Source: Candidatus Fraserbacteria bacterium (GTDB lineage: Bacteria > Bipolaricaulota > Bipolaricaulia > RBG-16-55-9 > DRXL01). From it: 64,000 bases of DNA. Positions 15,713 through 32,318 of this stretch are shown here, piece by piece. The notes beneath the pieces were generated by a model. It saw nothing but the letters and a program-made list of their open reading frames with translations. It did no database searches and was not told where the DNA came from. Made by a program: the position numbers and the translations under genes. The stretch is from assembly GCA_947085185.1 (NCBI GenBank), contig CAMTVK010000006.1, positions 34,839 to 98,838 on the forward strand. Reading direction: 5' to 3'. The stretch's first letter is position 1. Every line of letters starts with the position of its first letter.

Positions 15713-16120
15713 TCACTTGCTCTTCTTAAACTCAGGAAGTCCCAAGCACCGCCGCAACAGCTGGCGCACTTCTTTCGCAATCTTGACAGCTTCCTTAGCT
15801 TCTTCTGCAGTCGGTTCCTCCCCAGGGTAGCGAGGCATGACGCTATATGCGTTGAGCATCTCCAACAAAGGATGGAGTGATTGCAACAAAACATCTTGTT
15901 TCTGACACAGCTGGAGCAGCCGCAAGAGATCGTGTGTCTTGGGGAAGGCTACTCGCCTCTGCACCAGAAATGCTTTCAAATATTTCTCTGCACTTTGCTG
16001 GGCATGAAAACAAATACTGTTAGTCAATTTCTTTTTTTGTCGGCTCAAGATCAAAGCGACCTGGAAATCTTCTTCAGCCTTCTGAACCCAGGCGCGCACG
16101 TCCTCGCGAGGAGCGCTCAT
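15713..16120 (-). CDS. HEPN-domain protein (HepT-like toxin partner of the adjacent MNT)
   Basis: ~135 aa all-helical protein, adjacent to and overlapping an MNT nucleotidyltransferase gene. ATG at 16120 chosen. Overlaps the MNT gene by ~47 nt. Confidence 0.65.
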   Translation of the reverse strand: MSAPREDVRAWVQKAEEDFQVALILSRQKKKLTNSICFHAQQSAEKYLKAFLVQRRVAFPKTHDLLRLLQLCQKQDVLLQSLHPLLEMLNAYSVMPRYPGEEPTAEEAKEAVKIAKEVRQLLRRCLGLPEFKKSK

Positions 16121-16466
16121 AGAGCACCCAGCCTTGGCGTACCACCTCCTGCAGGAACGGATCAAACCAGGTATTCAATCGCTTTGCGAATTCCGACGGC
16201 GTCAGAACGATCAAATCGAGAGGGTAGCGGCGCGGCTCAAAGTATCGCGAGACGAGCTGCTGCCGCCTGGCCAAGCTCTTTTCCGAGGTCGCAAGGACAA
16301 TGAGAAGATCTAAGTCACTCTCAGTGCTCGGCTTCCCATAGACGTGCGACCCAAAGACAATTACTCTCTCAGCGTTGAGCTCATGCACGAGCCGGCGCAC
16401 ACACGCTCGTAGCCAAGCTTCAACCGATGACGCTAGCTTAATAAACCTCTTCTTCTCTTCCCACAT
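16074..16466 (-). CDS. Minimal nucleotidyltransferase (MNT/MntA-like antitoxin)
   Basis: VIVFGSHVYGKPSTESDLDLLIV, the canonical GS...D.D NTase motif. 130 aa. Located 20 nt downstream of the S8 protease gene on the same strand. Confidence 0.75.
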   Translation of the reverse strand: MWEEKKRFIKLASSVEAWLRACVRRLVHELNAERVIVFGSHVYGKPSTESDLDLLIVLATSEKSLARRQQLVSRYFEPRRYPLDLIVLTPSEFAKRLNTWFDPFLQEVVRQGWVLYERSSRGRARLGSEG

Positions 16467-16485: not shown

Positions 16486-19194
16486 CTAGCGCATCACGAG
16501 CATCACGATGATCCCCTCGCCCTCGGTGAGGGGCTCGAGGGCTTTGCCGATGATCGCTCCCTCGCACTTTTGAATGCTATCGCAGCGCATGGCGTAGCCC
16601 GGCTGAGAAGCGCTTGTCAGAAGATCTCCCGGACGTATAGGGCCGTTCTCGGCAGTCACTTTCACCGGGACGCGCCCCAAGAGCGCTAGGAGAGCTTGCT
16701 GTGGCGAGCGATCCTGTGCCCCCAGCACAACTCCCGGGGCCGTCGAGATCACCCCGGCAACTAAGGGGCTGTAGGGTGTGCGCGCTTTGCGATAGTGTTT
16801 GGGATTTTGGGGATCGAGCTCGACGACGTCCCCAGGCGCGACGGCTTCAGAGACGGCGATAAACTCAGCGACGTCGGCGCCACCGGGATTGAGGGAGCCG
16901 TCAGTGCAGACGTTGCCCGTCGCGCGCTCGACGCGGAAGATCGCCCCTGTATTGGTGCAAGCTGGCGACACCGTGCTCCAGTGGACGGCCATATTATTGT
17001 TGAGTATCTGCGAATTGAAGCCGATCTGGGTCGCATCGCTTGGGCTCACTTGCACGCCGATGGTCGCACTGCCGCCCTTATCGGCAAAAGCGCAGCCGCC
17101 ACCAAAGTCTACGTCTTGATAGTTGAAGAGCACGTTGTTATTGCTCTCGAAGAGGACGATTTGGAAGCGCACGGTCACGCCAGAGTTGGTGCTACAGGTA
17201 TAGTGTCCTACATTGCGCCACTCGATGACCAATTCTCGATTGGGGGCTGAGCCCAACACTTGCCAGAAGACGTTCTGGGTCGTGCCGGTGCCGCCGGGTC
17301 CCGGGAAGAGATCGTCCCAGAAGGGCGCGATGAGCGTCGTGAAGGAAGTATAGGGAAGCTGCTGATTGCTATACTGCAAACCGGTGTTATTGGTGAAGCT
17401 CAATAGGCCGTTTGCGTTGACATGGACGGTGCTGTAGCTGCTTGTGCCAAACTGCACAGCGAATCCTGGGGTGATGGACGCCCAGGTATCATCCCCCAAG
17501 TTGAGATTCGTCCCAGTGATCGTGCGATAGTTTGGAGAGGGCGTCGTACAGCTGTAAGAACCTTGCACGCCGCCGACCTGCACGGTCGTAGATTCTCCGT
17601 TGGAGAAATTGAGCGTGAAGGTGCCGATCTGGCAAGCGTCGCCGGGCGTCCAAGTCCCTGAATAGATGCCGTCGTTGGCAGCCAAGTCGGGCGCGACGCC
17701 GTTGTCTACGAGGTTGACGACTGTTCCGCCGGGGTTGATCGTCACTGTGAGAGCGCCTGCGGGAGCTGCGCAGTTAATGTTGAGCACCGCGATCGTCACC
17801 GGTGCTCCGCCGCCCACAGTGGCGAATGGTCGCAGGACCCCGAAGAACGGCGCGTTGGTGCAGGAGAGCGCCTGGAAGGCGTTGATGCGGCGCGCTGTGA
17901 CTGACTTGCCTTGCAAGCTCAATTTGACGTCCCCAGTGGAGAAGATCAAGTTGCGAATAGCGATCCAGTCGCGGCTGGGGCTGTGAGCTTTCAGTAGCGC
18001 GGCCAAGCCCGTGACGTGCGGCGTGGCCATCGAGGTGCCGCTGAAGGTGCTGTAGGTGTTGTTCGGAGTGGTGCTGAGAATGTTCTTCCCTGGAGCCCCG
18101 ACGTGAACGGTGCGCAGACCGTAATTGGAAGCCCCGAAGGTAAAAGTCGCTAAGTTGTCTCTGTCGTCCGTAGCCGCCACGGCGATGATGTTGGGCAAGT
18201 AGTAATTGCTTGGGTAGTGAGGGATCGCATCGTTATCTGTCCCGTCGTTGCCTGCAGCGGCGATGAACAAAATTCCGGCGTTCATGTGAGCTCTGATGGC
18301 ATCCAAGAGCGCTTGCGAGAAGCCGCCGCCGCCCCAGGAGTTGTTGGTGGCGACGATGTTCTCGCCTTGGTTTTTCTCCGTCAAGACGTACTGCAAACAC
18401 GAGATCGCGCCGGCTGTCGAACCGCTGCCGCCAGCTCCTAAGAACTTACAATGGCCGACTTTCACATCCCAGTTGACGCCTACGACCCCGACGCCGTTGT
18501 TGCCGCGCGCGCCGATTGTCCCAGCGACGTGCGTGCCGTGACCGTTGTCGTCCCTGGGATCGCTATCGTTGTTGAAGGTATCTATTCCGTAGATGTCGTC
18601 CACCCAGCCGTTGCTGTCGTCATCTATGCCATTGCCGGGAATTTCATTGGGGTTGACCCAGCGATTGGCTGAAAGGTCTTCGTGATTGTAGTCGCCTCCG
18701 GTGTCAATCACAAAGACCACGACGCTGCTGCTGCCCGTGGAGAGATCCCAAGCTTCGGGCGCGTCAATGTCAGCGTCGGGCGTGCCGCCGGTCTGGCCGG
18801 TGTTGTGCAGGCCGTAGAGCTGACTGAAGGACGGGTCATTGGGCGTGAGCTGTATCTGTTGGGCTTTGCGCACAATGTAATTGGGCTCGGCGTACAGCAC
18901 GTCGGGGTTTTTTCTATAGAGCCGTATGGCTTCCGGCACGCTGAGGCTCGCTGGGAGACGCACGAGCTGCAGATTGGGCACGATCTCGAAGGTCTTGAGC
19001 ACTCTTGCGCCAAGCATGTTATGAACCTGGCTTGCGTCGACCCCGAGTTTGACCCGCACCAAAAGTTCATTAGGGACAAATTCGCCGGTTGGCTCTCTAT
19101 CTTTCTGTCCTTGTACCGTTGCGGTCATGCTCACGAGCGCGAGGAGTGCGGTAAGCACTGTGATCTTCAGCGCAGATCGTGTTATGGATCCCAT
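16486..19194 (-). CDS. Secreted subtilisin-family (S8) serine peptidase with I9 propeptide, large middle region and an unassigned ~150-aa C-terminal domain
   Basis: Signal peptide. Catalytic triad contexts VIDTGGD, DDNGHGTHVAGT, GTSMATPHVTG. Long Gly/Thr/Ser-rich beta-rich middle. The C-terminal ~150 aa (AIFRVERATGNV...GYAMRC...KCEGAIIGKALEPLTEGEGIIVMLVMR) is shared with the next gene. Confidence 0.85.
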   Translation of the reverse strand: MGSITRSALKITVLTALLALVSMTATVQGQKDREPTGEFVPNELLVRVKLGVDASQVHNMLGARVLKTFEIVPNLQLVRLPASLSVPEAIRLYRKNPDVLYAEPNYIVRKAQQIQLTPNDPSFSQLYGLHNTGQTGGTPDADIDAPEAWDLSTGSSSVVVFVIDTGGDYNHEDLSANRWVNPNEIPGNGIDDDSNGWVDDIYGIDTFNNDSDPRDDNGHGTHVAGTIGARGNNGVGVVGVNWDVKVGHCKFLGAGGSGSTAGAISCLQYVLTEKNQGENIVATNNSWGGGGFSQALLDAIRAHMNAGILFIAAAGNDGTDNDAIPHYPSNYYLPNIIAVAATDDRDNLATFTFGASNYGLRTVHVGAPGKNILSTTPNNTYSTFSGTSMATPHVTGLAALLKAHSPSRDWIAIRNLIFSTGDVKLSLQGKSVTARRINAFQALSCTNAPFFGVLRPFATVGGGAPVTIAVLNINCAAPAGALTVTINPGGTVVNLVDNGVAPDLAANDGIYSGTWTPGDACQIGTFTLNFSNGESTTVQVGGVQGSYSCTTPSPNYRTITGTNLNLGDDTWASITPGFAVQFGTSSYSTVHVNANGLLSFTNNTGLQYSNQQLPYTSFTTLIAPFWDDLFPGPGGTGTTQNVFWQVLGSAPNRELVIEWRNVGHYTCSTNSGVTVRFQIVLFESNNNVLFNYQDVDFGGGCAFADKGGSATIGVQVSPSDATQIGFNSQILNNNMAVHWSTVSPACTNTGAIFRVERATGNVCTDGSLNPGGADVAEFIAVSEAVAPGDVVELDPQNPKHYRKARTPYSPLVAGVISTAPGVVLGAQDRSPQQALLALLGRVPVKVTAENGPIRPGDLLTSASQPGYAMRCDSIQKCEGAIIGKALEPLTEGEGIIVMLVMR

Positions 19195-19204
19195 GCTTTA
19201 CCTC

Positions 19205-20566
19205 CTAGCGTAACATGACTTGCACTTCGATCACACCTGTGCCCTCGGTGAGGGGCTCGAGAGCCTTCCCGATCACGGCGCCGACGCACTGGCTCTTCTC
19301 CGGGCACCTCATCGCATACCCGGGGATCGGCGAGCTCACCAACAGATCGCCGACTTGGATGGCTCCATACTTGGCTGTCACCTTGACGGGCACGCGCCCG
19401 GCCAACGCCAAGATCGGGCGAGTATCGCTGCTCTTGGCGCTCTGGTTGCCCAATATAACTCCCGGAGCTGTCGAAATGACCCCGGCGACGCGATGGCTTA
19501 TGGCCTCGCGGGCCTTGCGGAACTTGCCCGGATTGTCTGGGTCAATCTCGACGACATCGCCCGCTTCGAGCGGTTCGGTAGTATCGATGCGCTCGGCGAC
19601 GTCGGCCCCGCCGCCGGTGATCGAGCCAGCGGCGTAGACGTTGCCCGTCGTGCGCTCGACGCGGAAGATCAAGCCTGTAGCTGAGCCAGAGCCCGTGTTA
19701 TAAATTTCCAGAGCATTGGTACCGCTGGAGCTGTCGATGCGCAGGCCCGGCTGATTGGCAGTGTTATTGATATGGGTCTTGGCGCTGGGGCTGGAGGTGC
19801 CAATCCCGAGGTTGCCATCGGCGGTCAACCTCATCCATTCAGGGGGCGCTGTGCTACCGCTATGCGCCGCCCACGCAAACCCTCCCCCACTCACGTGGCG
19901 GAAGTCGGATCGACTAGCCCCAGCCACATCCCGGTAGACGATCCCCACGACACTCGTAGGTGTTGAGAATTCTATCCGTCCTACTTCGCTGGTACCACTA
20001 TTGAGAAACCAGCGCTGGAGACCCGTAGGTCGAATGTGGGAGCGCTCGATGCTTCCGCTGTCAGTGTAGAACTCTACAATGTTCACGCCCGCTGGGGCGT
20101 TCACCCGCAGGTTATCGTTGATCGTCTGCACCAACGGCTGCAGGCGCGGATTTTGAGCTACTTCCCCCACCGTAGGGCCACTCAACAGGGTCAAGGGCGG
20201 TGCCACTTGTCCGGCCTTCCCCCGCACCAGCGCTAATTTCCCCAGCTTCTTGGTCACGTTGCCAAACTCATCTTTCATAGTGACGGTATAGAGATAGACG
20301 CCACTGGCGACCGGCTGCCCTTGCATATTCAACATCTTCCAATCCAACGCCACGCCATTCACAGCCCCCGAATCGAAGATCTTCTGACCCGCTAACGAGA
20401 TGATCTCGACTCGCAGCTCCTTGACCGAGCCTTGGGCGGAGAACCGCACCGCATCGCTGTAGGTTGTCACGGTCAGGGAGACTGACTGGGCCAAGACTCC
20501 CAAGCCCAGCACGAACACGACTGCCACCCCGACAAGAAGACCCCGCAGAACCTGCCGCTGCATCAT
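19205..20566 (-). CDS. Secreted beta-sandwich protein (FlgD-Ig-like N-terminal domain) with the same unassigned C-terminal domain
   Basis: Signal peptide (MMQRQVLRGLLVGVAVVFVLGLGVLA). N-terminal domain has a GVYLYTV-type Ig-like motif. The C-terminal ~155 aa is ~65% identical to the C-terminus of the S8 peptidase. Confidence 0.6.
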   Translation of the reverse strand: MMQRQVLRGLLVGVAVVFVLGLGVLAQSVSLTVTTYSDAVRFSAQGSVKELRVEIISLAGQKIFDSGAVNGVALDWKMLNMQGQPVASGVYLYTVTMKDEFGNVTKKLGKLALVRGKAGQVAPPLTLLSGPTVGEVAQNPRLQPLVQTINDNLRVNAPAGVNIVEFYTDSGSIERSHIRPTGLQRWFLNSGTSEVGRIEFSTPTSVVGIVYRDVAGASRSDFRHVSGGGFAWAAHSGSTAPPEWMRLTADGNLGIGTSSPSAKTHINNTANQPGLRIDSSSGTNALEIYNTGSGSATGLIFRVERTTGNVYAAGSITGGGADVAERIDTTEPLEAGDVVEIDPDNPGKFRKAREAISHRVAGVISTAPGVILGNQSAKSSDTRPILALAGRVPVKVTAKYGAIQVGDLLVSSPIPGYAMRCPEKSQCVGAVIGKALEPLTEGTGVIEVQVMLR

Positions 20567-20651
20567 CGTGATGCGCCTCCTTCTTCATGACGAGTGTGTA
20601 ACACAAATTATAGACCTTACTCCCCCCTTCTGTCTAGTCCATCCTGCTCTA

Positions 20652-22073
20652 TCAATCAAGAAGGCTCTCCAACAAGCTCTCATAAGTCTGAACAGCTACG
20701 GATAAGTCAAACTGTGCTATGCGCTCGCGACCCCTGTGAGCCAGCTCCTGCCGCAGCTGCCTGTCTAAGAGCAGCTGCTCTATCCCATGAGCTAAAGCCT
20801 TGGGATCACCTGAGGGCACAAGCAAACCCGCTCGCCCTTCGTCTAAATACTCTCGTACACTTGGTGAGCAATCGGTTGCGAGCACAGGAAGCCCCAATGC
20901 CATCGCCTCGCCGATGACATTGGGCAGTCCTTCTGTCAAGGACGAGAGTACAAAGAGATCTGCGCGTGCCATGTACTTCCAAGGATTTTCCTGGAAGCCC
21001 AACAGCGCAACTCGATCAGTTAAGCCCAATTCTACAATCAAGTTCTCTAAAGCACTTCGTTCCTCACCCTCACCGATGATCACGAGGTTCACTTTCATTG
21101 AGAGCTGTGCCACCGCCCGAATCAGTATATCAAACCCTTTGAGCTTGACGAGTCGGCCCACAGCTATGAGGAGCGGTTCCCTTCGCTCATCGAACCAGGG
21201 GTGGAGGACTGGCTCAGCTGCTTGTACACATACGTTTTGCACGTCAATAGGGTTGTAGATTACAACAATCTTCTCTGCAGGCAGACCGAAGTTCTCGATG
21301 AGATCTCGTTTGATGCCCTGCGCCACCGCTACTATCACATCGGCTCGTGGGTAAAGGAGCCGAACAAGCCAGCGCAATAGGAAACGCTCATAGCGCTCAA
21401 GTTTGCTGTGTTGAAGAATCCGGCTAGTCACATCATGGACATTGACCACAACTTTCAGGTGACGATCAAAGAAAAGCTTCGCCAGAATTGCGATGATATT
21501 TGACAATGTGATTGAGCTGACTACGACTCCACAGCCGCTCTCCCGCGCTACCGCCGCGAGTCGGCGCGCCTGCCACAGCAGAGAATAGCAGTAGTAAGCA
21601 GGTTTAATCTTGCGTAACCAACGTAAGAGCGTGCCGATCAATCTTAAAGGCACACTTGCAACAAAGTAAGTTGTTGTGAGTATCACTTGCGAAAAACGCT
21701 GCTTTGCACGAGACAGGAGAGCTTTGATCTGCCAGAGGAAAGACCTGAATGCCCTTTGGGGAGGTTCTGTAACTGATATAAAGAAGGCTCTAACTGCTTG
21801 TATGCCCTTCCCCAATACTCTCAAGGAGCGGACTAATCGAGACGCTTTATTCTCAACAATAGAAAGCGCGAAGATCTCCAATAGAGGCACACTGGTGCTG
21901 ACTATTCTCAGGAGCGGACCGCGCTTCAGTTGCAGAAGCAGGATAGGTCGATGGGACCTCAAATTGTTGACGTAATTGATGCAGACGCGCTCGGCCCCTC
22001 CGGCCTCTAACGTTGGGATGAAGAAAAGAACTCTTTTTTTAATCTGCTCCAAATCCGCTTGTGGCATAGTCAC
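20652..22073 (-). CDS. Glycosyltransferase family 4 (GT4) with extended N-terminal region
   Basis: C-terminal GT-B domain with the E-x7-E region (SLTEGLPNVIGEAMALGLPVLATD). Confidence 0.75.
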   Translation of the reverse strand: MTMPQADLEQIKKRVLFFIPTLEAGGAERVCINYVNNLRSHRPILLLQLKRGPLLRIVSTSVPLLEIFALSIVENKASRLVRSLRVLGKGIQAVRAFFISVTEPPQRAFRSFLWQIKALLSRAKQRFSQVILTTTYFVASVPLRLIGTLLRWLRKIKPAYYCYSLLWQARRLAAVARESGCGVVVSSITLSNIIAILAKLFFDRHLKVVVNVHDVTSRILQHSKLERYERFLLRWLVRLLYPRADVIVAVAQGIKRDLIENFGLPAEKIVVIYNPIDVQNVCVQAAEPVLHPWFDERREPLLIAVGRLVKLKGFDILIRAVAQLSMKVNLVIIGEGEERSALENLIVELGLTDRVALLGFQENPWKYMARADLFVLSSLTEGLPNVIGEAMALGLPVLATDCSPSVREYLDEGRAGLLVPSGDPKALAHGIEQLLLDRQLRQELAHRGRERIAQFDLSVAVQTYESLLESLLD

Positions 22074-23245
22074 ACAACCTCCATGATAAGTTGCTCGTAT
22101 TGTTTGACTATCTTAGGAGCATCAAAGTCTTTAGCCCGTTGAGGACCTAGCTCAGCGAGCTTAGTGCGCAGTTCATGATCCTGTAACAACTTGAGCATTG
22201 CGGCGGCCAAAGCTTCTTCATCTGCTGGTGGCACTAAAACCCCGTACTGCCCGCCTTGTAAGATTTCAGCAGGCCCCGAAAGACAATCGGTCGAGATGAC
22301 AGGGCAACCGCAAGTCAGAGCCTCCAAAATGACGTTGGCAAGGCCCTCCACTAGTGACGGAAGGACCAGTGCAGTTACCTTGCTCATGTAGCTAAAAGGA
22401 TTGGGTGTAGCTCCAATAAAGTCAACTTTGTCTTCCACATGCAAGGCTTTCGCCAGCTCTTGCAGTGCCCCTTTCTCTTCTCCTTCACCAACGACTAGTA
22501 ACCGTGCTGGCTTCTCTGAATTTGCGATTTTTAAAGCATTGAGCAAGATATCTACACCCTTGAACTTGACGAGTCTACCGACAAAGAGGAAGATCGGAAC
22601 CTGAGCTGCAAACCAAGGGTGAGTGACAGGTTCTTGACTTAAATCCTGGATTTTTCGGACATCTAAAGGGTTATAGATCACATGCAAATGGTTGTGGGGA
22701 ATCCCCCATTTGGTGGTAAGGTCATCAGCAATTCCTTGACTAATACAAACGATTGGATTGAGCTCTCGCAGGCGAGGTGCCCAAAACATCCGAAACTCCC
22801 TGTGGGCGGGATTCTGCATGAGGGTATTTGAAAGGTGGCTGGCTAAGCGGGCGATTACTTTTACTTTGTGGCGCAGGCTAGCCTTATAAGCCACGAGGGA
22901 GGTTAAGAAATTCGTTGTTAAAACGCAATCTATTTGCCGTTGGACAAGATGATGTGTTAATCTGCTTGACAACAATTCTAGCCACACGAAGGATTCGCAC
23001 TCTCCCAGCAAGCTCAGAGGGATGTCGACGACCAACTTTTCCGAAGGTGGTAAGGGTTGCGAATTCAACACAAACACGGGGATACCGGATGGAAGGGAGT
23101 AAAATGACTGACCTTCATGGAAAACTGTCAACTCAACCGCTATGTGCGAGCTGACATGCTGCAAGAAGGTCGAGACGAACCGCTCCACCCCGCCGGGAAC
23201 ATGCAGGGTCTCGGTCAGCAGAGTCATCTTAACTTTACGTGCCAT
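22070..23245 (-). CDS. Glycosyltransferase family 4
   Basis: VGRLVKFKGVDILL...SLVEGLANVILEALTCGCPVISTD GT4 signature. Translationally coupled to its neighbours (4-nt overlaps). Confidence 0.8.
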   Translation of the reverse strand: MARKVKMTLLTETLHVPGGVERFVSTFLQHVSSHIAVELTVFHEGQSFYSLPSGIPVFVLNSQPLPPSEKLVVDIPLSLLGECESFVWLELLSSRLTHHLVQRQIDCVLTTNFLTSLVAYKASLRHKVKVIARLASHLSNTLMQNPAHREFRMFWAPRLRELNPIVCISQGIADDLTTKWGIPHNHLHVIYNPLDVRKIQDLSQEPVTHPWFAAQVPIFLFVGRLVKFKGVDILLNALKIANSEKPARLLVVGEGEEKGALQELAKALHVEDKVDFIGATPNPFSYMSKVTALVLPSLVEGLANVILEALTCGCPVISTDCLSGPAEILQGGQYGVLVPPADEEALAAAMLKLLQDHELRTKLAELGPQRAKDFDAPKIVKQYEQLIMEVV

Positions 23246-24422
23246 AAGTGTCTCGTATGACCTGCACGTACTGATTTACGATCTTCCGAGCTTCGAAATC
23301 CTGAGCCCGTTGTCGGCCTTGTTCGGCAAGCTGCTGTCGCAACGCAGGATCACTTAGCACTTTGGTGATAGCCTCTGCAAGGGCTCGAGCATCAGCCACC
23401 GGCACCAAGAGTCCATAACGCCCGCCACCCAGGATCTCAGCGGGACCGGAGGGACAATCTGTTGCAATCACGGGACAGCCGCAAGCAAGAGCCTCTGCAA
23501 TTACATAGCCAAATCCCTCATACAAAGAAGACAAGACGAACACCGTCGAACGGGCAAAATACTTGAACGGGTTCTTTTGCTTGCCTGCAAACCAAATGCA
23601 GTGTTGAATACCTAATTCCGCAGCTAAATCCTCTAATCTTTGGTGCTCGTCCCCTTCACCTAGAAGGATCAAACGTGCAAGGTTACCCTGCTTGTGGACA
23701 AGGCTTAGTGCACGGAGCAGATAGTCAAAACCTTTCTGCGGAGCTAAGCGACCTGCTGCCGTGATGATCGGCGTGCATTCAGCCATCCAAGGATGGTCAA
23801 CAGGCTCTGACACCAGTTTCTCGATCTGTTGAAGATCCAGAGGATAGGGGATCACTGTGATCTGCTGTTGGGTAACTTTGAAGTTATGCATAAGATCGGA
23901 AGCTACGCCTTCGCTTGGACAAACAATTTTGTCGGCCTTCTGAAGATGCTCACGCCCCAAGAACATGTAAAGCGGGCCTTTGGGAGCATGGGAAAGCATT
24001 GTGGAAGCGTGATTATCCACGGAGCCTACGAAGCAGATCTCCTTCGGCCAATACTTGCGTGATAGCAAACACAACGTGGACGCGAAGAGTTCGCGTGCGA
24101 ACACGACATCCGGCCTCCTTTGGTGTACCAGTTCGGCCAGCTTAAGGGCAGTTAGCTCAAGCCAAATAAAGTCTTCACGGGCTCCCAAGAGTTGAATCGG
24201 GATATCCACGCGAATCGAGTCGACATGCGGCAGCGGATTGCGCTCCAAGATGTGCGTTTGAATTTCCAGAGGGATAGGGTAAAAAACCTCTCGATTAAAG
24301 ATCATGACTAATTCGACGTCAAATAAACTGCGATCCAAATATCTCAAAAGAATGGTTATATTACGTCCTACTCCGCCCAGAGGCAAGCCGTGGGTGACGA
24401 TCATCAGCTTAATTTTCCTCAT
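23235..24422 (-). CDS. Glycosyltransferase family 4
   Basis: AGRLAPQKGFDYLL...SLYEGFGYVIAEALACGCPVIATD. Confidence 0.8.
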   Translation of the reverse strand: MRKIKLMIVTHGLPLGGVGRNITILLRYLDRSLFDVELVMIFNREVFYPIPLEIQTHILERNPLPHVDSIRVDIPIQLLGAREDFIWLELTALKLAELVHQRRPDVVFARELFASTLCLLSRKYWPKEICFVGSVDNHASTMLSHAPKGPLYMFLGREHLQKADKIVCPSEGVASDLMHNFKVTQQQITVIPYPLDLQQIEKLVSEPVDHPWMAECTPIITAAGRLAPQKGFDYLLRALSLVHKQGNLARLILLGEGDEHQRLEDLAAELGIQHCIWFAGKQKNPFKYFARSTVFVLSSLYEGFGYVIAEALACGCPVIATDCPSGPAEILGGGRYGLLVPVADARALAEAITKVLSDPALRQQLAEQGRQRAQDFEARKIVNQYVQVIRDTYGT

Positions 24423-25623
24423 TATTGCTCTCCTCCCCAGACAGCAGCCTCAAGATTCTTTTTGTATACCGGCTAGTTATTTGGGGGGCATCAAAGGCTA
24501 AGGCGCGCGTTGGAGCCAGCCGGGCAAACTGTTCTCTGAGCTGCGGGTCTCTCAGTAGCTTCAGAATTCCTTCGGCCAGCGCTGGGGGACTTTCCATCGA
24601 CACTAAGAGGCCGTACTGTGTTGTCCCCTCAGCTAAGATTTCCGATGGCCCATACGGGCAGTTGGAAGCCACGATGGGGCAGCCGCAAGCCAGCGCTTCC
24701 ACCAAGGCGTAACCGAAACCTTCCCACCGAGAAGGAAAGGCGAATACCGTACACTTCTGCATGTACTTAAAAGGGTTCTGTTGGAAGCCTAAAAAAGCGA
24801 CATGAGGTGCTATGCCTAACTCCAGAGCGAGTTTGCGAAGGACGTCCTCCTGCGGACCTTCCCCGATGATGACACATCGCGCCGGAAGCTCCGCCCTGAC
24901 GCGAGCGAGCGCTTGAAGCAGGAGATCAAACCCTTTTTGCGGGGCAAGCCGACCCACCGCCAAGATAACAGACTCCAGCCCAGAGAAGAAGGGATGGTCC
25001 ACACTTTCTTTTGCTAGTTGCTGCACAGCTTTGACATCAATAGGGTACTGGATCAAAGTGATCTTTTCGGCTGGTATGCTGTAGCTTTGTTGTAACACTT
25101 CAGCGACACTGGCACTGGCGGTGATGAGACCATCTGCTTCACATAGTCTTGTTCGCGCCAGCTGCTTGTACAGCTCCCCATGCGACGCGGCACGAAAGTC
25201 GCTGGCAATCTCGGCACCAGCGACGACTATCACTTTGATAGAAGGAGCATGCTTTTTGGCGTATAAGCTAAGCATTCCGCAAAACAAGTTGAATGCCAAA
25301 ACCACTTGCGTCTTCTGCACCGTTATCACATCGGCCAATTTATGAGCCATGACTTCAAGCCAAGCAAGATCAGCGCTATAGCTCAGTGATTGTAAGGGTA
25401 TTTCAACATGTATTGATGGTATATTAGGCATTGGAGTCTTTTCTAGAACATGCCAGGGCACGTCACTGGGGATAGGGAAGAAGGGCTCTTGGTCAAAGAT
25501 GGTAACGAGTTCGATATCTAGCATCTTTCTGTCGAGATGGTGCAACAAGATGGAAACACACCGCTCCATACCCCCAACGCTTAAGGTTGGTGAGATGAGT
25601 ACAACCTTTGTTTTATGAGCCAT
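24409..25623 (-). CDS. Glycosyltransferase family 4
   Basis: VGRLAPQKGFDLLL...SRWEGFGYALVEALACGCPIVASN. MAHKTKVVLI start preferred over the track's upstream start at 25686. Confidence 0.8.
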   Translation of the reverse strand: MAHKTKVVLISPTLSVGGMERCVSILLHHLDRKMLDIELVTIFDQEPFFPIPSDVPWHVLEKTPMPNIPSIHVEIPLQSLSYSADLAWLEVMAHKLADVITVQKTQVVLAFNLFCGMLSLYAKKHAPSIKVIVVAGAEIASDFRAASHGELYKQLARTRLCEADGLITASASVAEVLQQSYSIPAEKITLIQYPIDVKAVQQLAKESVDHPFFSGLESVILAVGRLAPQKGFDLLLQALARVRAELPARCVIIGEGPQEDVLRKLALELGIAPHVAFLGFQQNPFKYMQKCTVFAFPSRWEGFGYALVEALACGCPIVASNCPYGPSEILAEGTTQYGLLVSMESPPALAEGILKLLRDPQLREQFARLAPTRALAFDAPQITSRYTKRILRLLSGEESNNEEN

Positions 25624-27635
25624 CAAGCCTCCAGTCTTCTTCTTACAGTATAGAATATTGTCACTCCTTGCACGAGCACAAACCAAGCTGCGTAAACATA
25701 GATGAAAACTAAAAAAGGCGCGGTATGCACTACCAGCCGCGGATCAATACCCAAGGGCACTAAAAAAGCTATCAGGTTAATTGTTAGGATTGGGAAAATC
25801 AGAATTTCGCGAAATCTGGAGAATATCACAAGCAGCAATCCCATTAGATACAGATAATATAAAGGGGTGATTTCAAGCCCCGCTTGCTTCCAGAACAGAT
25901 GAGTGGGTCTGAGGAATAGATCGAGATAGCCACTTATAGTTCTCGAAATGATTTCACCAAGGCTATGCATGCCAAAGATATATTGAAATGTCGTCACGGG
26001 TGCTCCACTGTGACCCTTTGCCCGAAACTGCTCTAACGTGGGGCAGCCCTCACAGCTGATGCCTTTGAGAACCACAAATTCATAGTTTCTATACCACTTG
26101 GCATGGACGTTCGCGCTCCAGAACGGATCGCCGAACTTCTGATAACTATAAGCTAAATACGGTGCGAGCAACAGCATCAAAACAGCTATAGGAATGAAAA
26201 GCTTCTTCCAAACAATCTTCTGCCGCCAGAAGGCGTAGCCCCACAGGGGAAGAACAAAGACTAAACTATTGATCTGTTGCAAGACGGCTGCTGCACCCCA
26301 CCCACTAAGACCGGCCAATCGCTGCTTTTCTCCCAGCCGCTCTTGCCTTATAAGCACGTGATAAGCCAGCATGAGAATGGCGATAGTATAGAGCTCTAAG
26401 CGCAGACCACGCACACTCATAAAGATCAAGTATGGGTTAATCGCCAGTAGCGCAACCACGAGTAAAGCCAGCACTGGTTGTTTTGTGTAGTCCTTGAAAA
26501 ACTTGTAGGCAGCTACCAATGTGAGCAAGGAGAGCACGAGAGTGAGCATGCGCAGGTTGAGATCCGAGGAGCCAACGACTAAGAACCAGAGCTTGGTAGC
26601 CCAAATCCATAAGGGCTCCCTAAAGCTTGTGTCATAAAGATGTCGCATATTATCAGCAATTTGTCGGTAGCCAACTGCATCGGGGTCAAGGGGGCGGTAC
26701 TGAAACTCCGTTAGCGCCTCCCAGCGCAGCACGAAGCCCAGTGCGATGATCGCTACCAGCAATGAGCTTACAACAAACTTCTGTACCCCCTCTCCTGGCT
26801 TTATCAGCGGAGCCATACTAAGTGCAATTACAGTTCCAGCTGCATACAGGAACCAGATCCAAGGAATAGCGAGGTCTTCCACATAAGGCCCCAGCTGGGG
26901 CGTGACAAACCGCGCAAGAGAAGGCAAGTTCGCCAGGGGAAGCCCCGTGAAGATCCAGTTGGGCCAGAGTGCGCTGGCCAAAGCCTCGGCACCTAAAGCA
27001 GCAGCAAAGATGGCGAGAGCAAATTTCAGCTGCACAGCTCGCGCCCAAGCATAGAGGCTCAAAGGGATAGCGATGAACAGAAAGAGGCCCGGTAAGTAAG
27101 GCAAGGCGATCGGGTTTTTAATTTTGACTATCTGAATCCAATCTAAAGCAACATAGGTCTCAGCAGAACCCGTCTCTGCAGCGCTTGCAATGATCCGTAA
27201 AAAAATTTCGGAAGAGCCTAGGGCATATGGAGTCAAAAGCACATAACGGTTGGCTACTTGCAGGTTAGACCCAACCGTTTGATAATGAACCCCATCCGTA
27301 GAGATTTCGAGACGAATCTCCTCTAGCCCGGTCCAGTGAACTCCGAGGTTTAGATTGAGATCTTCGTCGGGCTCTTTAGTGATTTTATAGATGACTTCGC
27401 CACGCTGGCCTGATCTAAGATAGAGGCCATCGACCTCTACTTCCCAATCGCCCAGTACTTGAGCATCTTGCTGGATTTTCTGTGCCCTATCGTTAATGTG
27501 ATCTAAGTAGGTGCTTAGCACAGTTGGAGTACCAACGAGTCTGAGCAGCTCCTCACGATAGATAAGCACTGCGATAAAAGCAGTGAGTAAGATAAGCATT
27601 GGCCATTGCAGCTGTTTGATATGCTTCATAACCAC
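25623..27635 (-). CDS. GT-C fold polytopic membrane glycosyltransferase (ArnT/PMT-like, family 39/83-like) with N-terminal ~170-aa extracytoplasmic domain
   Basis: 670 aa, more than 10 TM helices. First extracytoplasmic loop has an Asp-containing motif (RPLDPDAVGYRQIADNM). Sits next to a GT2 polyprenol-phosphate glycosyltransferase and an ArnE-like gene. Confidence 0.5.
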   Translation of the reverse strand: MVMKHIKQLQWPMLILLTAFIAVLIYREELLRLVGTPTVLSTYLDHINDRAQKIQQDAQVLGDWEVEVDGLYLRSGQRGEVIYKITKEPDEDLNLNLGVHWTGLEEIRLEISTDGVHYQTVGSNLQVANRYVLLTPYALGSSEIFLRIIASAAETGSAETYVALDWIQIVKIKNPIALPYLPGLFLFIAIPLSLYAWARAVQLKFALAIFAAALGAEALASALWPNWIFTGLPLANLPSLARFVTPQLGPYVEDLAIPWIWFLYAAGTVIALSMAPLIKPGEGVQKFVVSSLLVAIIALGFVLRWEALTEFQYRPLDPDAVGYRQIADNMRHLYDTSFREPLWIWATKLWFLVVGSSDLNLRMLTLVLSLLTLVAAYKFFKDYTKQPVLALLVVALLAINPYLIFMSVRGLRLELYTIAILMLAYHVLIRQERLGEKQRLAGLSGWGAAAVLQQINSLVFVLPLWGYAFWRQKIVWKKLFIPIAVLMLLLAPYLAYSYQKFGDPFWSANVHAKWYRNYEFVVLKGISCEGCPTLEQFRAKGHSGAPVTTFQYIFGMHSLGEIISRTISGYLDLFLRPTHLFWKQAGLEITPLYYLYLMGLLLVIFSRFREILIFPILTINLIAFLVPLGIDPRLVVHTAPFLVFIYVYAAWFVLVQGVTIFYTVRRRLEA

Positions 27636-27651
27636 TCCTGTGGGAAAGCCG

Positions 27652-28401
27652 CTAACGTCTCAGCAACAGGTTGTACTTTAGGATGTACCAGATGGCCTTT
27701 AGCCCATCCCTCAAGGTGATCTTCTTGCCCTCTTCATATGTGCGTCCGTAGTAAGAGATAGGGACTTCATAGATGCGACAGCCAAGGCGAGCGACCTTGG
27801 CCGTGATCTCGGGCTCAAATCCGAACCGATCTTCTTTGAGATTGATCTTTTGTAGCACCTCGCGCCGGAACATCTTATAGCACGTCTCCATATCGGTCAG
27901 ATTCATGTTGGTGAACATGTTGGAAAGAGTAGTGAGAAAGAGGTTGCCCACGTAATGCCAGAAGTACAAGACGCGGTGCGGGCCGCCCAAGAAGCGTGAA
28001 CCATAGACGACATCGGCCACGCCACGCCGGATGGGCTCCAATAGCTTATGGTATTCTTGCGGATCGTACTCCAGGTCAGCATCTTGAATTACGATGACGT
28101 CTCCAGTTGCCTCCTGAAAGCCGCGTCGTAACGCTGCTCCCTTGCCGCGATTGCGCTCCTGAAAGATGACTTTAATGTTGTCCACGTAAATCCTCTGATT
28201 GAGTTGCGGCAATTCAAATCCCTCCGGGTTAGAGTTGTGCTGTGCCTCTAAGAGCTGTTGCAAAAACTCGCGCGTCCCGTCGGTCGAGCCGTCATCAACA
28301 ATGATGATCTCCTTGTCAATATCTACTTCCTGGACACGCTTGAGCACTTCTTCAATATAAGCCCGCTCATTGTAAACGGGCATCACCACGGACAGTTTCA
28401 T
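27652..28401 (-). CDS. GT2 polyprenol-phosphate glycosyltransferase (ArnC/DPM1/GtrB-like)
   Basis: [12 protein letters not shown]...[11 protein letters not shown]...[11 protein letters not shown]...YGSRF, the classic GT2 DxD/Q(R)xxRW family. Confidence 0.8.
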
Positions 28402-28405
28402 CGCT

Positions 28406-28762
28406 TCAACCCCTCACGATCAGGGCTACGCCCCCCAAGATGAGTGCGATACCTACCCACTGTGTGAATGACAGCGGCTCGCCCAAGAGCTTAGCCGAAA
28501 TCAGAGCAACCCACACATAGCTTGTCGCAATCACCGGATACAGCACCGACAAATTGCCGTGTTTGAGCGCCACGATGAACAAGATGGCGGAAAGGCCGTA
28601 AAGGGCCATCCCGCCGAGAATCTTGAAATTCGTCAGCCAACTCCATACGCTCAGCGATATTGAGGGCGAGCCCAGCTTGAACAACAGCTGGCCCAGTGAG
28701 CCCATCAGCGCACAAAATGCCGCCAGTGCAATCGCCCAAGCTTTGGTCTCCATCCGACTCAC
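28406..28762 (-). CDS. Small 4-TM DMT/SMR-like protein (ArnE/ArnF-like undecaprenyl-phosphate-sugar flippase subunit)
   Basis: 118 aa, four TM helices, EamA-like C-terminal motif [24 protein letters not shown]. Confidence 0.6.
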
Positions 28763-29709
28763 GCTCCCTTGTTCAATAAGCTTCGGAAATAGTCAAGTGT
28801 GCGGCGCAGGCCTTCTCGTCGTGTGACCTTGGGCTCCCAACCCAGCCGCTCCTTGGCCAAGCTAATGTCGGGGCAACGCACTTTAGGGTCGTCAGCAGGC
28901 AGCGGCTCAAAGACGATTTCACTGCGGCTATTGGCCAACTCAATGATCTCTTTAGCCAGCGCTAATATTGTGACCTCGTCAGGATTACCCAGATTGACCA
29001 GACCGCTCTCATAAGACTGGAGCAGCCGGTAAAGCCCCTCAATCATATCGTCTATATAGCAGAAGCTTCGGGTCTGTGTGCCGTCTCCGTAGATGGTCAA
29101 TGGCTTATTATGAAGAGCTTGCCAGCAGAAGTTCGAGACAACTCGTCCGTCATGGGGGCGCATGAGTGGACCATACGTATTGAAAATGCGAGCGATTTTC
29201 ACATCTAGTCCATAGCACCGGTGATAGGCCATCGTCAGCGCTTCAGCATAGCGTTTGGCTTCGTCATAACAACTGCGCGGTCCAACGGGATTGACCCGCC
29301 CCCAGTAACTCTCTGGCTGTGGGTTCACCTCCGGATCGCCGTAGACTTCGGATGTTGAAGCGAGCATAAAGATAGCCTCTTTCTGCCTTGCTAGCTCGAG
29401 CATATAATATGTGCCGAATGCCCCAGCTTGTAATGTCTCGATTGGGTATTTCCCATAATCAGAAGGGCTGGCAGGACTGGCTAGATGGAGCACATAGTCT
29501 AGCGAATCTGCAAATGAGAGGGGCTGAGTCACGTCGTGCTGCAAGAAGTGAAAGTTGGGGTTGCTCAAAAAGGGTGTTATATTCTCCCGACGGCCGGTCA
29601 ATAAGTTATCCACGCACCACACCTCATAGCCCTCTTGCACCAGACGAGCACATAAATGCGCTCCAATGAAGCCAGCTCCTCCTGTAATCAGCACTTTCTT
29701 TGCGCTCAT
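28759..29709 (-). CDS. uxs: UDP-glucuronate decarboxylase / UDP-xylose synthase
   Basis: Short-chain dehydrogenase/epimerase fold. Near-colinear similarity to eukaryotic and bacterial UXS: [56 protein letters not shown]. Confidence 0.85.
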
Positions 29710-31007
29710 GGCCGGCCTACCCCATAGTATATGAAGCCAAGCTTACGCAGCCTCTCAGGATTATAAATATTGCGGCCGTCAAATATAACTGGTGTTTTCA
29801 TTGCTCGCTTAATTCTCTCAAAGTCTGGAGTACGGAATTCACCCCACTCTGTAAGCAGTACCAGGGCTTCCGCAGCTTGCACGCTTCCATAGTGATCATC
29901 GACATACTCGATCCGGTCACCAAAGATGGTCCGAGCCTTGTCGGTAGCCCTTGGATCATGAGCTACCACGTCCGCTCCATGTTCCAAGAGCTTTTCAATA
30001 ATGGCCAGTGAAGGGGCTTCACGTATATCGTCGGTACCTGGCTTAAATGCCAACCCCCAGATTGTGATGCGGCGGCCCTTCAGATGCCCTTGGAAGTGAT
30101 CGTAGATCTTCTTGAAAAAACGAAGGCGCTGCTCTTCGTTCACCATGTCGACAGCAGCAGCGATACGCAATGGGCAGCTGTGATCTTGTCCCATCCGGAC
30201 AAGGGCTTTGACATCTTTGGGCAGGCAAGAACCTCCATAGCCTACACCGGGGAAGAGAAAAGCATAACCGATACGACTGTCCGCTCCGACCCCCTTGCGT
30301 ACCTGCTCAATGTCCGCTCCTAGCTGCTCGCATAAGGCGGCTAGTTCGTTCATCAGGGAGATCTTGGCAGCCAGTATCAAGTTGGAGGCGTATTTAGTCA
30401 TCTCAGCGCTCCGGTGGTCCATAATAATAATGGGTTTTTCAGTGCGCACAAAGGATGCATAGAGTTCTCTCATCACTTCGGCGGCTTTCAGACTGCTGGT
30501 GCCAATAATGACTCGATCGGGCTTGAGGAAATCATTCAGGGCCGTGCCTTCTTTAAGAAACTCAGGGTTGGAGACAACTTCAAGCTCATAACGAGTATAT
30601 CGAGCGATGAGTTCTCGAACCTGTTCGGCTGTCCCGACGGGTACAGTGCTCTTAAGCACGATGATCTTTGGACCATTCATGGAACGTGCAATCTTCTCCG
30701 CGACGGTAAAGACCTGGCTGAGATCAACGCTGCCATCGGGGTTGGAGGGCGTACCCACGGCGATGAAGATGATCTCAGAGTTGCGAACAGCTTCAGCAAG
30801 ATCCGTAGTGAACTGGAGCCGCCCCTCTCTTATATTGCGTTCGAGCAGCTCTTCCAAGCCCAGCTCATAGATGGGTGAATGGCCTTGCTGAAGCTGAGCA
30901 ATTTTCTGAGCATCGCTATCAACGCCGATAACATGGTTGCCGCTATCGGCAAAGCAGGCTGCTGCTGTCAAGCCAACATACCCTGTCCCTATGACCGCAA
31001 GATACAT
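29706..31007 (-). CDS. ugd: UDP-glucose 6-dehydrogenase
   Basis: [13 protein letters not shown], catalytic GGSCLPKD, ~433 aa. Confidence 0.9.
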
Positions 31008-31017
31008 AGGCTATCGA

Positions 31018-31250
31018 GTTACGAGGAACACGCCACCACCGATTAATAATATACCCAAGAGCCGAGCCAGCGTAAGCGACTCCCCTAAGAATGCCCAGGA
31101 GATCAGCGGCAGAATAAGATACACTCCTCCCCCAAATAAAGGTAAAGCATAACTAATTCATGCCCTTCTTCATCAAGACCTGCCCGCTGAGAGCGAGAAC
31201 CAGGACAAAGAATATCAAGAAGATGACACGGTTCATTTCGTATCCTCCTG
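31018..31250 (-). pseudogene. Decayed second ArnE/ArnF-like small membrane protein gene (in-frame stop plus frameshift, internal deletion)
   Basis: Strong RBS (AGGAGG) then MNRVIFLIFFVLVLALSGQVLMKKGMN and a stop. The +1 frame continues as ...LGESLTLARLLGILLIGGGVFLVTR, which matches the C-terminal EamA motif of the intact paralog at 28406..28762. Combined length ~75 aa against 118 aa. Lower GC than the surroundings. Confidence 0.4.
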
Positions 31251-31574
31251 TGTTGAAACATTATAATGGCTTCGATTTCGATGGTCAAGCGCTTATAGCT
31301 AGGCCATTGTGATTGCGTGGATAAGCCCAGATCATCTTGGTATATCTCCCTCTCGACAGTATACAGATACGTGAGTGGCGGTACCAGCCAAACCAGCGCG
31401 CCTGCGCAGAGCTGATGCTGGAGAATTGCCAAGGGATTTCTGAAAATTAGAGAAAGCCATACACGCCTGAAAGCCGCTACATACTCGCTATCAAAATCGA
31501 TGAGCTGACGATTAAAATCATGCGCATAGACTATAGAATGCATAGACGTACACACATAGGCTTTGCTCCATTTA

Positions 31575-32318
31575 TCAAACTGCTAGGAGGGCCTCATAAT
31601 CATCTAAGACGGAGGCAACTTCTCCCAAAGCCTTTAGCTTCCCTTGGGAGAGCAAACACGCACGGTTGCACAGGTGTTTGACAGCTGTTATATTGTGTGA
31701 AACAAAGACGAGTGTCTTCCCCTGACGGCGAAGCTCCATCATCCGTTCCAGACACTTCTTCTGAAAGTGCTCATCTCCTACAGCAAGCACCTCGTCAATC
31801 AATAAGATATCCGGGTCAAGATGCGCTGCGATCGAAAATCCCAAGCGTGCATACATCCCTGTTGAGTAGTTCTTAACGGGAACATCAATGAACTCCTCAA
31901 GCTCAGAAAATTCTACAATATCCTTATAGATTCTATCAATCTCGCGGCGCGTCAGCCCATACAGCGACGCATTGAGATAGATGTTCTCTTGCCCAGTCAG
32001 CTCGTGATGGAACCCCACCCCCAGTTCGATCATCGGCGCCACCCGCCCGCGCACGATAATTTCACCCTTGGTGGGATAGAGCGTGCGCGCGATTAATCTC
32101 AGTAATGTGCTTTTGCCCGACCCGTTTGGGCCGATCAACCCCAGCGCCTCCCCGTGCTCCACCGTTAGGTTAATGTCTTGCAAAGCCCAGAAAGGTTCAC
32201 AGTGCTCTCGATAGCGCCTGTTGAAAAGTCCAACGAAGCGCTCTTTCAGTGAGTCGGCGCGGTTGTGTCGGATGAGAAATTGCTTCCAGACGTTGCGAAT
32301 CTCAATAGCTGGGAGCAT
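31575..32318 (-). CDS. ABC transporter ATP-binding protein, polysaccharide/teichoic-acid export type (Wzt/TagH-like, no C-terminal carbohydrate-binding domain)
   Basis: Walker A GPNGSGKST, LSGGQ-like signature, Walker B. MLPAIEIRNVWKQF start whose ATG overlaps the stop of the upstream permease gene. Confidence 0.85.
   Translation of the reverse strand: MLPAIEIRNVWKQFLIRHNRADSLKERFVGLFNRRYREHCEPFWALQDINLTVEHGEALGLIGPNGSGKSTLLRLIARTLYPTKGEIIVRGRVAPMIELGVGFHHELTGQENIYLNASLYGLTRREIDRIYKDIVEFSELEEFIDVPVKNYSTGMYARLGFSIAAHLDPDILLIDEVLAVGDEHFQKKCLERMMELRRQGKTLVFVSHNITAVKHLCNRACLLSQGKLKALGEVASVLDDYEALLAV

Follow-up and report, generated by a model that had tools for sequence, protein, structure and literature searches.

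The pre-neck appendage protein gp12 of phage phi29 is the reference for a family of C-terminal auto-chaperone domains (MEROPS G2; Pfam PF11962, Peptidase_G2; IMC autoproteolytic cleavage domain), with structures in PDB entries 3gqh, 3gqk and 3suc. It is a cytoplasmically assembled, pectate-lyase-like tailspike. The closest annotated relatives of the module described here are C-termini of the type found in gp359 of the Pseudomonas jumbo phage PA5oct (tblastn E=4e-10, 39% identity; hhalign 98.6%), which have in common with it an A|DLAERY motif and the GRVPVKV and GVIST blocks. PA5oct gp359 is a virion protein confirmed by mass spectrometry, and its gene adjoins a tail-fibre gene. Whereas gp359 is a phage structural protein in a phage context, the copies in the window (the whole stretch of 64,000 nucleotides analysed) are surrounded by cellular envelope and polysaccharide genes, with no phage genes around them.

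The same logic is followed by Peptidase_S74, found in K1F endosialidase, the T5 L-shaped tail fibre, Bdellovibrio MAT fibres and eukaryotic MyRF, in which a C-terminal domain promotes trimer formation by what precedes it and then cuts itself off. For an S74-type chaperone this has been shown on cellular surface fibres that carry signal peptides (PMC10769870; PMC8326128). Peptidase_S74 is nevertheless a family unrelated to the module and has a different fold. As the sequence-only reading had held, the modules are not of this type: PF13884 gave no match even at E<=10, and neither module contains the SDxxxK Ser-Lys motif that defines Peptidase_S74 (PMC10769870). The beta-tulip capsid decoration and cement proteins (HFTV1, TW1 gp56, the phi29 gp8.5 base and the lambda gpD class) were also compared. 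These bind capsids, show no sequence similarity to the module, lack D-x-A-E and do not self-cleave, and the window module does not fall among such capsid-associated phage proteins.

The module is found at the C-termini of two proteins encoded by adjacent minus-strand genes, an S8 (subtilase) gene of 902 aa (16486..19194) and a neighbouring gene of 453 aa (19205..20566). The two ORFs are separated by 10 nt and are probably co-transcribed, with the neighbour gene upstream. A promoter-like site on the same strand (TAGACA-18-TATAAT, 20607..20636) has 11/12 consensus matches and lies about 40 nt upstream of the neighbour start codon; it is identified from the consensus only, such sites being no more numerous than expected from shuffled sequence. 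Downstream, a HEPN/MNT pair follows on the same strand after a gap of 19 nt, one less than first counted. Both proteins have a signal-peptide-like start according to a heuristic, and the synteny of the two genes is shared by L002, L005 and L041. Similarity and synteny link the locus to MAGs of Bipolaricaulota and 'Fraserbacteria'.

In the S8 protein, the N-terminal signal peptide (heuristic) is followed by a fervidolysin-type N-prodomain (aa 29-105; Pfam PF22148, E=2e-15) and a catalytic domain (aa 156-421; Pfam PF00082, E=1.3e-48) in which the D164, H219 and S388 catalytic motifs are all found. Further downstream are a choice-of-anchor-X match (aa 493-517; NCBIfam choice_anch_X, 31.9 bits vs a cut-off of 25) and a NIDO-like region (about aa 589-629; E=9.7e-10). 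The shared region opens with a segment of about aa 746-773 (16876..16959, minus strand), ending in ...IFRVERATGNVCTDGSLNPGGA, which aligns with the neighbour (BLASTP) and with the residues that precede the scissile bond in gp12 (675-691), and which is predicted to remain on the mature protein. The G2-like beta-tulip auto-chaperone domain itself (D774-R902, 129 aa; 16489..16875, minus strand) begins at the invariant D of A|D-V-A-E, placing the self-cleavage site predicted from the motif at A773|D774. The S8 module matches the family HMM at E=6.4e-74.

The neighbour has a different body. Its signal peptide (aa 1-27) precedes a FlgD-like Ig beta-sandwich (aa 31-113), modelled with pLDDT >=94 in the full-length AF2 model, to which the weak FlgD_ig, CHU_C and Por_Secre_tail matches at aa 38-108 correspond; one orthologue carries the UniRef name 'FlgD Ig-like domain-containing protein'. 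A disordered linker (aa 119-161; AF2 pLDDT <50) leads into a beta-rich, stalk-like region (aa 163-304; pLDDT 55-82 in the AF2 monomer model), and a GIGT...P..K motif precedes the module. The pre-cleavage segment, about aa 293-321 (19604..19690, minus strand), ends in ...LIFRVERTTGNVYAAGSITGGGA, and the G2-like beta-tulip auto-chaperone domain extends from D322 to R453 (132 aa; 19208..19603, minus strand), with a putative self-cleavage site at A321|D322. Both window modules end at the stop codon.

In BLASTP, residues 749-901 of S8 and 297-451 of the neighbour share 62% identity (72% positives, one 2-residue gap, E=8e-53), close to the ~65% estimated by the sequence-only reading, whose coordinates for the module were also correct to a few bases. 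As it had observed, the two proteins have unrelated N-terminal bodies, with no other segment aligning below E=0.4 (BLASTP), and no further copies of the module were found in the window by tblastn and an HMM scan of six frames. The Cys pair that it had described as conserved is present but lineage-specific, C129 occurring in 26/83 and C135 in 38/83 family members.

The two modules had also been thought conserved at the DNA level through recent exchange or gene conversion, on account of near-identical stretches. The longest identical runs are of 21, 19 and 15 nt and lie over the most conserved peptides, and the same codon is used at 53 identical residues vs 38 expected from codon usage, both of which favour exchange. 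Against this, overall nucleotide identity is 62.4%, no more than protein conservation predicts, third codon positions are 43% identical and dS=1.53. Orthologues in other MAGs are more similar to each module (82-87% and 71-73% identity) than its neighbour is (53-63%), and the gene pair has kept its synteny in the three loci named above. Recent exchange is thus extremely improbable, being refuted by the ortholog-versus-paralog identity matrix. Judged from these sequence comparisons, the two modules are paralogues of long standing that have stayed together in a conserved unit of two genes.

The shared module, which had been said to match nothing nameable, is very probably homologous to the Peptidase_G2 domain of phi29 gp12, and can be described as a diverged Peptidase_G2 auto-chaperone domain on ordinary secreted bacterial proteins. 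In the HMM-HMM comparison that had been proposed, the family of 83 module sequences matched 23 genuine G2 domains over 76 columns (hhalign 97.2%, E=4e-11), and gp12 alone at E=3.4e-4. With Pfam PF11962, both modules fell short of the gathering score of 25 bits: that of the neighbour reached 20.1 bits (E=4.5e-4), that of S8 10.8 bits (E=0.31). The shortfall seems to stem from the limited sensitivity of the model and not to speak against homology, because relatives and orthologues do better with PF11962: P0108 scored 27.1 bits, above threshold, and P0003 24.3 bits; 18/83 family members match at E<=0.01, and at least 8 neighbour orthologues have a precomputed PF11962.14 call. Other resources gave less. 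The best that PHROGs offered was a weak match to phrog_4775, 'pre-neck appendage protein' (E=1.3e-3), with none for the S8 module; NCBIfam had no model for the module, and a single-sequence phmmer search of PDB sequences with the module returned nothing.

The module also matches the fold of the gp12 C-terminal fragment. Similarity in sequence is confined to the N-terminal half of the domain, and in the other half only the fold corresponds. The family profile aligned with the PDB sequence 3gqh at E=0.62, a value informative for register and not significant alone. The D of DVAE falls on residue 1 of this released fragment (DFAEYF) and on gp12 D692, so that the scissile-bond motif x|D-x-x-E is in register with gp12 S691|D692...E695. 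The D, A and E of D-x-A-E are invariant in 83/83 family members and 75/75 orthologues. In gp12, Asp692 and Glu695 are reportedly the catalytic residues. Several differences from gp12 are apparent. The window domain has about 30 residues fewer and no counterpart of the insertion that gp12 has around residues 775-800, its P1 residue is Ala instead of Ser, its cleavage is predicted from sequence, and its carriers are Sec-exported cellular proteins, one of them an S8 protease.

We consider it likely that, as a whole, the module is a G2-type C-terminal auto-chaperone, trimerising and self-cleaving, in two old paralogues; for the component claim that it actually trimerises and self-cleaves, the balance tilts somewhat less strongly in favour. 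Beside the homology, fold, motif register, C-terminal position, signal peptides and distribution observed here, we infer trimerisation, self-cleavage and release of the module. The module would consist of two parts, a short beta-hairpin segment kept on the mature protein and a beta-tulip domain of about 130 aa starting at the invariant Asp. After Sec export, three chains would join through their beta-tulip domains, in the manner of all characterised viral beta-tulip proteins, and this would bring the region before the module into register and stabilise it. Once correctly assembled, the trimer would cut itself at A|D-x-A-E (A773|D774 in S8, A321|D322 in the neighbour), with the Asp and Glu acting as in gp12, and the cleaved domain may be released or stay non-covalently bound. 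Some observations fit this scheme poorly. The S8 body, a globular protease, offers no obvious trimeric fibre in its prodomain, catalytic domain or NIDO-like region for a trimerisation chaperone to act on. A simple model of a cap discarded from the C-terminus accords poorly with the two or three tandem or internal module copies in 57/146 distant representatives. Release of the gp12 domain reportedly depends on ATP, which is not available outside the cytoplasm, and the window proteins are exported.

Other roles for the module may be weighed against the same evidence. The beta-tulip could be retained uncleaved as a permanent trimerisation or docking handle, forming mixed trimers of protease and neighbour or docking secreted proteins on a common envelope lattice, by analogy with the beta-tulip decoration proteins that dock on capsids. 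This appears unlikely. An invariant D-x-A-E (83/83) precisely where gp12 is cut would be difficult to account for if the motif had no part in cleavage, the genes around carriers include no recurrent partner, and two module types that are 62% identical and form separate lineages do not particularly suggest mixed trimers. Much less probable still is the new C-terminal sorting or anchoring signal, serving a dedicated secretion or sortase-like system, that the sequence-only reading had entertained. The module is indeed C-terminal and common to several signal-peptide proteins of one genome, and its tail is a short hydrophobic stretch with an Arg after it. Yet the same domain ends virion proteins assembled in the cytoplasm (phi29 gp12, PA5oct gp359 and 60 viral models), it is a globular beta domain of about 130 aa, and its hydrophobic tail is the last strand (E151-158), which gp12 also has. 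The stretch, of 6-8 residues, is modelled as a beta-strand, and the combination of a motif, a transmembrane helix and a basic tail was not found at the C-termini. No T9SS CTD, PEP-CTERM or LPXTG model matched them, in agreement with that reading. Nor was any gene conserved beside carriers across 38 loci. In that comparison two large clusters of neighbouring genes were judged to be antisense shadow ORFs, since they vanished when ORFs overlapping carrier genes were taken out.

Aqualysin-type subtilases have a C-terminal pro-sequence, and the module, which here terminates an S8 enzyme already provided with an N-terminal prodomain, might be compared with a protease-specific propeptide assisting folding or export. 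This is very doubtful, with the same module present on non-protease bodies in the window and elsewhere, and with homology to a phage auto-chaperone and not to subtilase propeptides. The interpretation first offered is in part supported: the G2 homology agrees with its chaperone or autoprocessing option and not with a new sorting or anchoring tag.

The G2-type auto-chaperone module is distributed widely, in phage fibres and bacterial secreted proteins, and its family comprises about 31,000 cluster representatives, mostly signal-peptide-bearing proteins. In every first-round homologue the module is followed by 0-7 residues; among 146 representatives the remainder is <=10 residues in 118 and >100 in 28. 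The first homologue list, obtained with a 161-aa query, held only proteins of <=282 aa, probably through a length limit of the search, and these are probably mostly fragments and not a separate architecture. It is conceivable, if rather improbable, that Bipolaricaulota and related lineages have repurposed the G2-type beta-tulip as a shared extracellular assembly handle. If so, unrelated secreted proteins (the protease, an Ig-like adhesin, a C39-like peptidase and a beta-propeller) would assemble through it into homotrimers or mixed trimers or, after self-cleavage, stay attached by a non-covalent tether like those of SEA and GPS domains. Such modular surface display would account both for the joint transcription of protease and neighbour and for giant surface proteins that have the module in tandem, such as P0139, or at internal positions.

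Judged by its Pfam model, the Peptidase_G2 auto-chaperone family would seem much smaller and less cellular than it is, and a family model of higher sensitivity would give an annotation to many unassigned C-termini of uncultured phyla. For the locus described here, the module is not a new sorting tag, and it gives a specific annotation to two hypothetical-looking C-termini. A phage-type auto-chaperone on a subtilase makes a mildly unusual architecture, of possible use in enzyme production or stabilisation.

The shared C-terminal module is real. The S8 peptidase gene (16486..19194, minus strand; 902 aa) and its neighbour 10 nt upstream (19205..20566, minus strand; 453 aa) lie adjacent as the sequence-only reading had described, and both encode proteins with signal-peptide-like N-termini. 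Residues 749-901 of the S8 protein align with residues 297-451 of the neighbour (BLASTP, E=8e-53; 62% identical, a single gap of 2 residues), in line with the end-to-end similarity claimed earlier. The same comparison of the two proteins recovers no further similarity outside the module, and the N-terminal bodies are thus unrelated, as proposed. Only these two copies are found in the 64-kb window (tblastn and family HMM scan, all six frames). The S8 protein comprises a fervidolysin-type N-prodomain, a Peptidase_S8 domain in which the catalytic motifs D, H and S are all present, and a NIDO-like region. It also carries an NCBIfam choice-of-anchor X match (window 17644-17718, minus strand; aa 493-517; 31.9 bits, cut-off 25). 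This domain class is found in proteins ending in alternative C-terminal anchoring signals; the S8 protein ends instead in a G2-like domain. In the full-length AlphaFold model of the neighbour, the sole confident Ig-like beta-sandwich spans residues 31-113 (pLDDT at least 94) and is followed by a disordered linker (119-161) and a beta-rich region of moderate confidence (163-304), after which comes the module.

The module had been described as unassigned and matching nothing; it is a diverged member of the known and characterised Peptidase_G2 family, which includes the auto-chaperone of phage phi29 gp12. This is the outcome that the sequence-only reading had itself named as refuting novelty. The sole Pfam family matched by either module is PF11962 (Peptidase_G2, IMC autoproteolytic cleavage domain), with scores of 20.1 and 10.8 bits, below the cut-off of 25. 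An initial search for homologues gave 224 relatives; among those listed, the module always sits at the very C-terminus. Among 83 aligned family members, 18 match PF11962 at E<=0.01 and one clears Pfam's own threshold. Against PDB sequences, the family profile weakly matches the released gp12 C-terminal fragment (3gqh, E=0.62), and the first residue of that chain (DFAEYF) lines up with the invariant DVAERI of the family. With hhalign, the family matches full-length gp12 over residues 675-769 (E=3.4e-4) and an alignment of 23 genuine G2 domains at 97.2% probability (E=4e-11). The C-terminus of gp359 from the Pseudomonas jumbo phage PA5oct is a bridging relative (tblastn E=4e-10; hhalign 98.6%); gp359 is a virion protein confirmed by mass spectrometry, and its gene adjoins the tail-fibre gene. 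AlphaFold models the module with confidence (pLDDT 91.2, pTM 0.83), and uncleaved gp12 (3suc) is the only PDB entry that Foldseek matches to it at E<=0.001. A viral model library gives 60 matches at the same threshold, including "preneck appendage" and "tail fiber" proteins. 3SUC has been assigned to the beta-tulip group, the viral members of which are trimers (PMC7602432).

Across the 83 aligned sequences, 75 have A29 and all 83 have D30, A32 and E33; G70, P76, G98, G114, L117 and K142 are likewise invariant. Among 146 distant representatives, D-x-A-E occurs at 197 of 204 module starts. This motif falls exactly on the known gp12 scissile bond, since residue 691 is the last of mature gp12* (PMC6542822) and virions lack the intramolecular chaperone (PMC9863714). 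Module and gp12 also share ETG-x-x-V, IRKA and IGVIS-x-x-G-x-x-LG. Both close with a hydrophobic strand and then a basic residue (GYGVAIVLVK in gp12, GVIEVQVMLR in the module), which explains the hydrophobic tail noted earlier. The reported Cys pair is present but lineage-specific (C129 in 26/83, C135 in 38/83); in exported members the two residues may be disulfide-bonded.

The duplication behind the two modules is old: the gene pair is syntenic in related MAGs (L002, L005, L041) and each module is nearer to its orthologue in other MAGs than to its adjacent paralogue. Neighbour-type modules are 82-87% identical between MAGs and S8-type modules 71-73%, against 53-63% between the two types. Recent module exchange, suggested earlier from nearly identical DNA, is refuted by these identities, the synteny and a codon-aware alignment, in which the modules share 62.4% nucleotide identity (43% at third positions; dN=0.35, dS=1.53). 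Unbroken stretches of identical bases reach at most 21, 19 and 15 nt, where LEPLTEG and IFRVER are encoded.

The neighbourhood of the pair is cellular, with genes for a Wzy_C/TPR protein, PAPS reductase, FAD oxidoreductase, HEPN, MNT and three GT4 glycosyltransferases; no phage genes were found there. The HEPN (PF05168, E=5.6e-28) and minimal nucleotidyltransferase (Polbeta/NTP_transf_2) genes are overlapping ORFs (window 15713-16466, minus strand) 19 nt downstream of the S8 stop codon, confirming the pair seen earlier on the same strand. L002 also has HEPN together with the PAPS reductase and Wzy_C/TPR genes, both further downstream, and this arrangement is at least partly conserved. GC content is 0.49-0.53 across window 20000-32000 and 0.58-0.60 in its flanks; this region, in which the annotated stretch 20652-24422 holds the three GT4 genes, may be an island for polysaccharide synthesis gained by horizontal transfer. 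When the genes around carrier loci were clustered, excluding shadow ORFs, no neighbouring gene family recurred across taxonomically distinct loci, so that nothing within ~6 kb points to a dedicated sorting partner. The earlier suggestion of a possibly new sorting tag is not supported.

Searched exhaustively, a set of 1.84 billion representatives contains 30,811 proteins that match the module profile at E<=0.001, of which 11,631 reach E<=1e-30; the proteins range from 179 to 4,978 aa. Carrier loci are mostly in Bipolaricaulota MAGs, and others are in Anaerolineae, Acidobacteriota, Xanthomonadales, Delftia, Sumerlaeia and Saccharibacteria. Two close orthologues of the neighbour protein carry archaeal MAG labels (P0005, P0299; Candidatus Caldarchaeum, Methanomethylicaceae), which are likely binning errors given 65-83% identity to Bipolaricaulota proteins. 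Nearly all carriers have a Sec-type signal peptide. Their bodies vary widely: S8, a C39-like peptidase joined to an Ig domain and a PQQ propeller joined to CBM96 are among them, and many match no Pfam family. One MAG has three module-bearing genes in tandem (L005:4936-11492), encoding a 501-aa Ig-like protein, an 898-aa S8 peptidase and a 627-aa protein without Pfam match; the modules of the latter two are 77% identical. At L038:1-16579 (GCA_900089805.1, FLOH01000010.1), a 192-aa carrier sits within a block of paralogous genes (441, 440, 431 aa; 703, 690, 711 aa) without any Pfam match, conserved in two metagenome contigs. Many carriers have a conserved 'xFTYQGxL'/'INYQGKL' domain directly after the signal peptide (L021, L029, L030, L031, P0139, P0169, P0201), which may recall the invariant ~130-aa N-terminal domain of Bdellovibrio MAT fibres (PMC10769870).

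By homology, the module most likely acts as a gp12-type auto-chaperone. From gp12 we infer that the beta-tulip domains of these two proteins would trimerise and help the upstream region to fold and assemble, after which the chain would cut itself within A|D-x-A-E (A773|D774 for the S8 protein, A321|D322 for the neighbour). The unrelated S74 chaperone acts in exported cellular proteins, the Bdellovibrio MAT fibres, a functional precedent for exported cellular carriers (PMC10769870). Giant proteins of 1,282-4,978 aa (P0139, P0177, P0169, P0127, P0121, P0201) hold two or three tandem or internal copies, each with D-x-A-E; in several the last copy precedes ~215-530 further residues, ending in a Pro-rich repeat tail in P0139 and P0177. 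Three caveats on trimerisation and cleavage leave some probability, though a low one, for retention of the domain as an assembly or docking handle: 57 of the 146 top representatives carry two or more copies, in tandem or internal; the S8 body does not look obviously fibrous; and gp12 domain release depends on ATP.

For the auto-chaperone family, the new points are limited to the cellular S8 fusion and a large branch under-recognised by the current Pfam model. A chain with several self-cleavage sites, or one that keeps its copies, would be atypical of this family.
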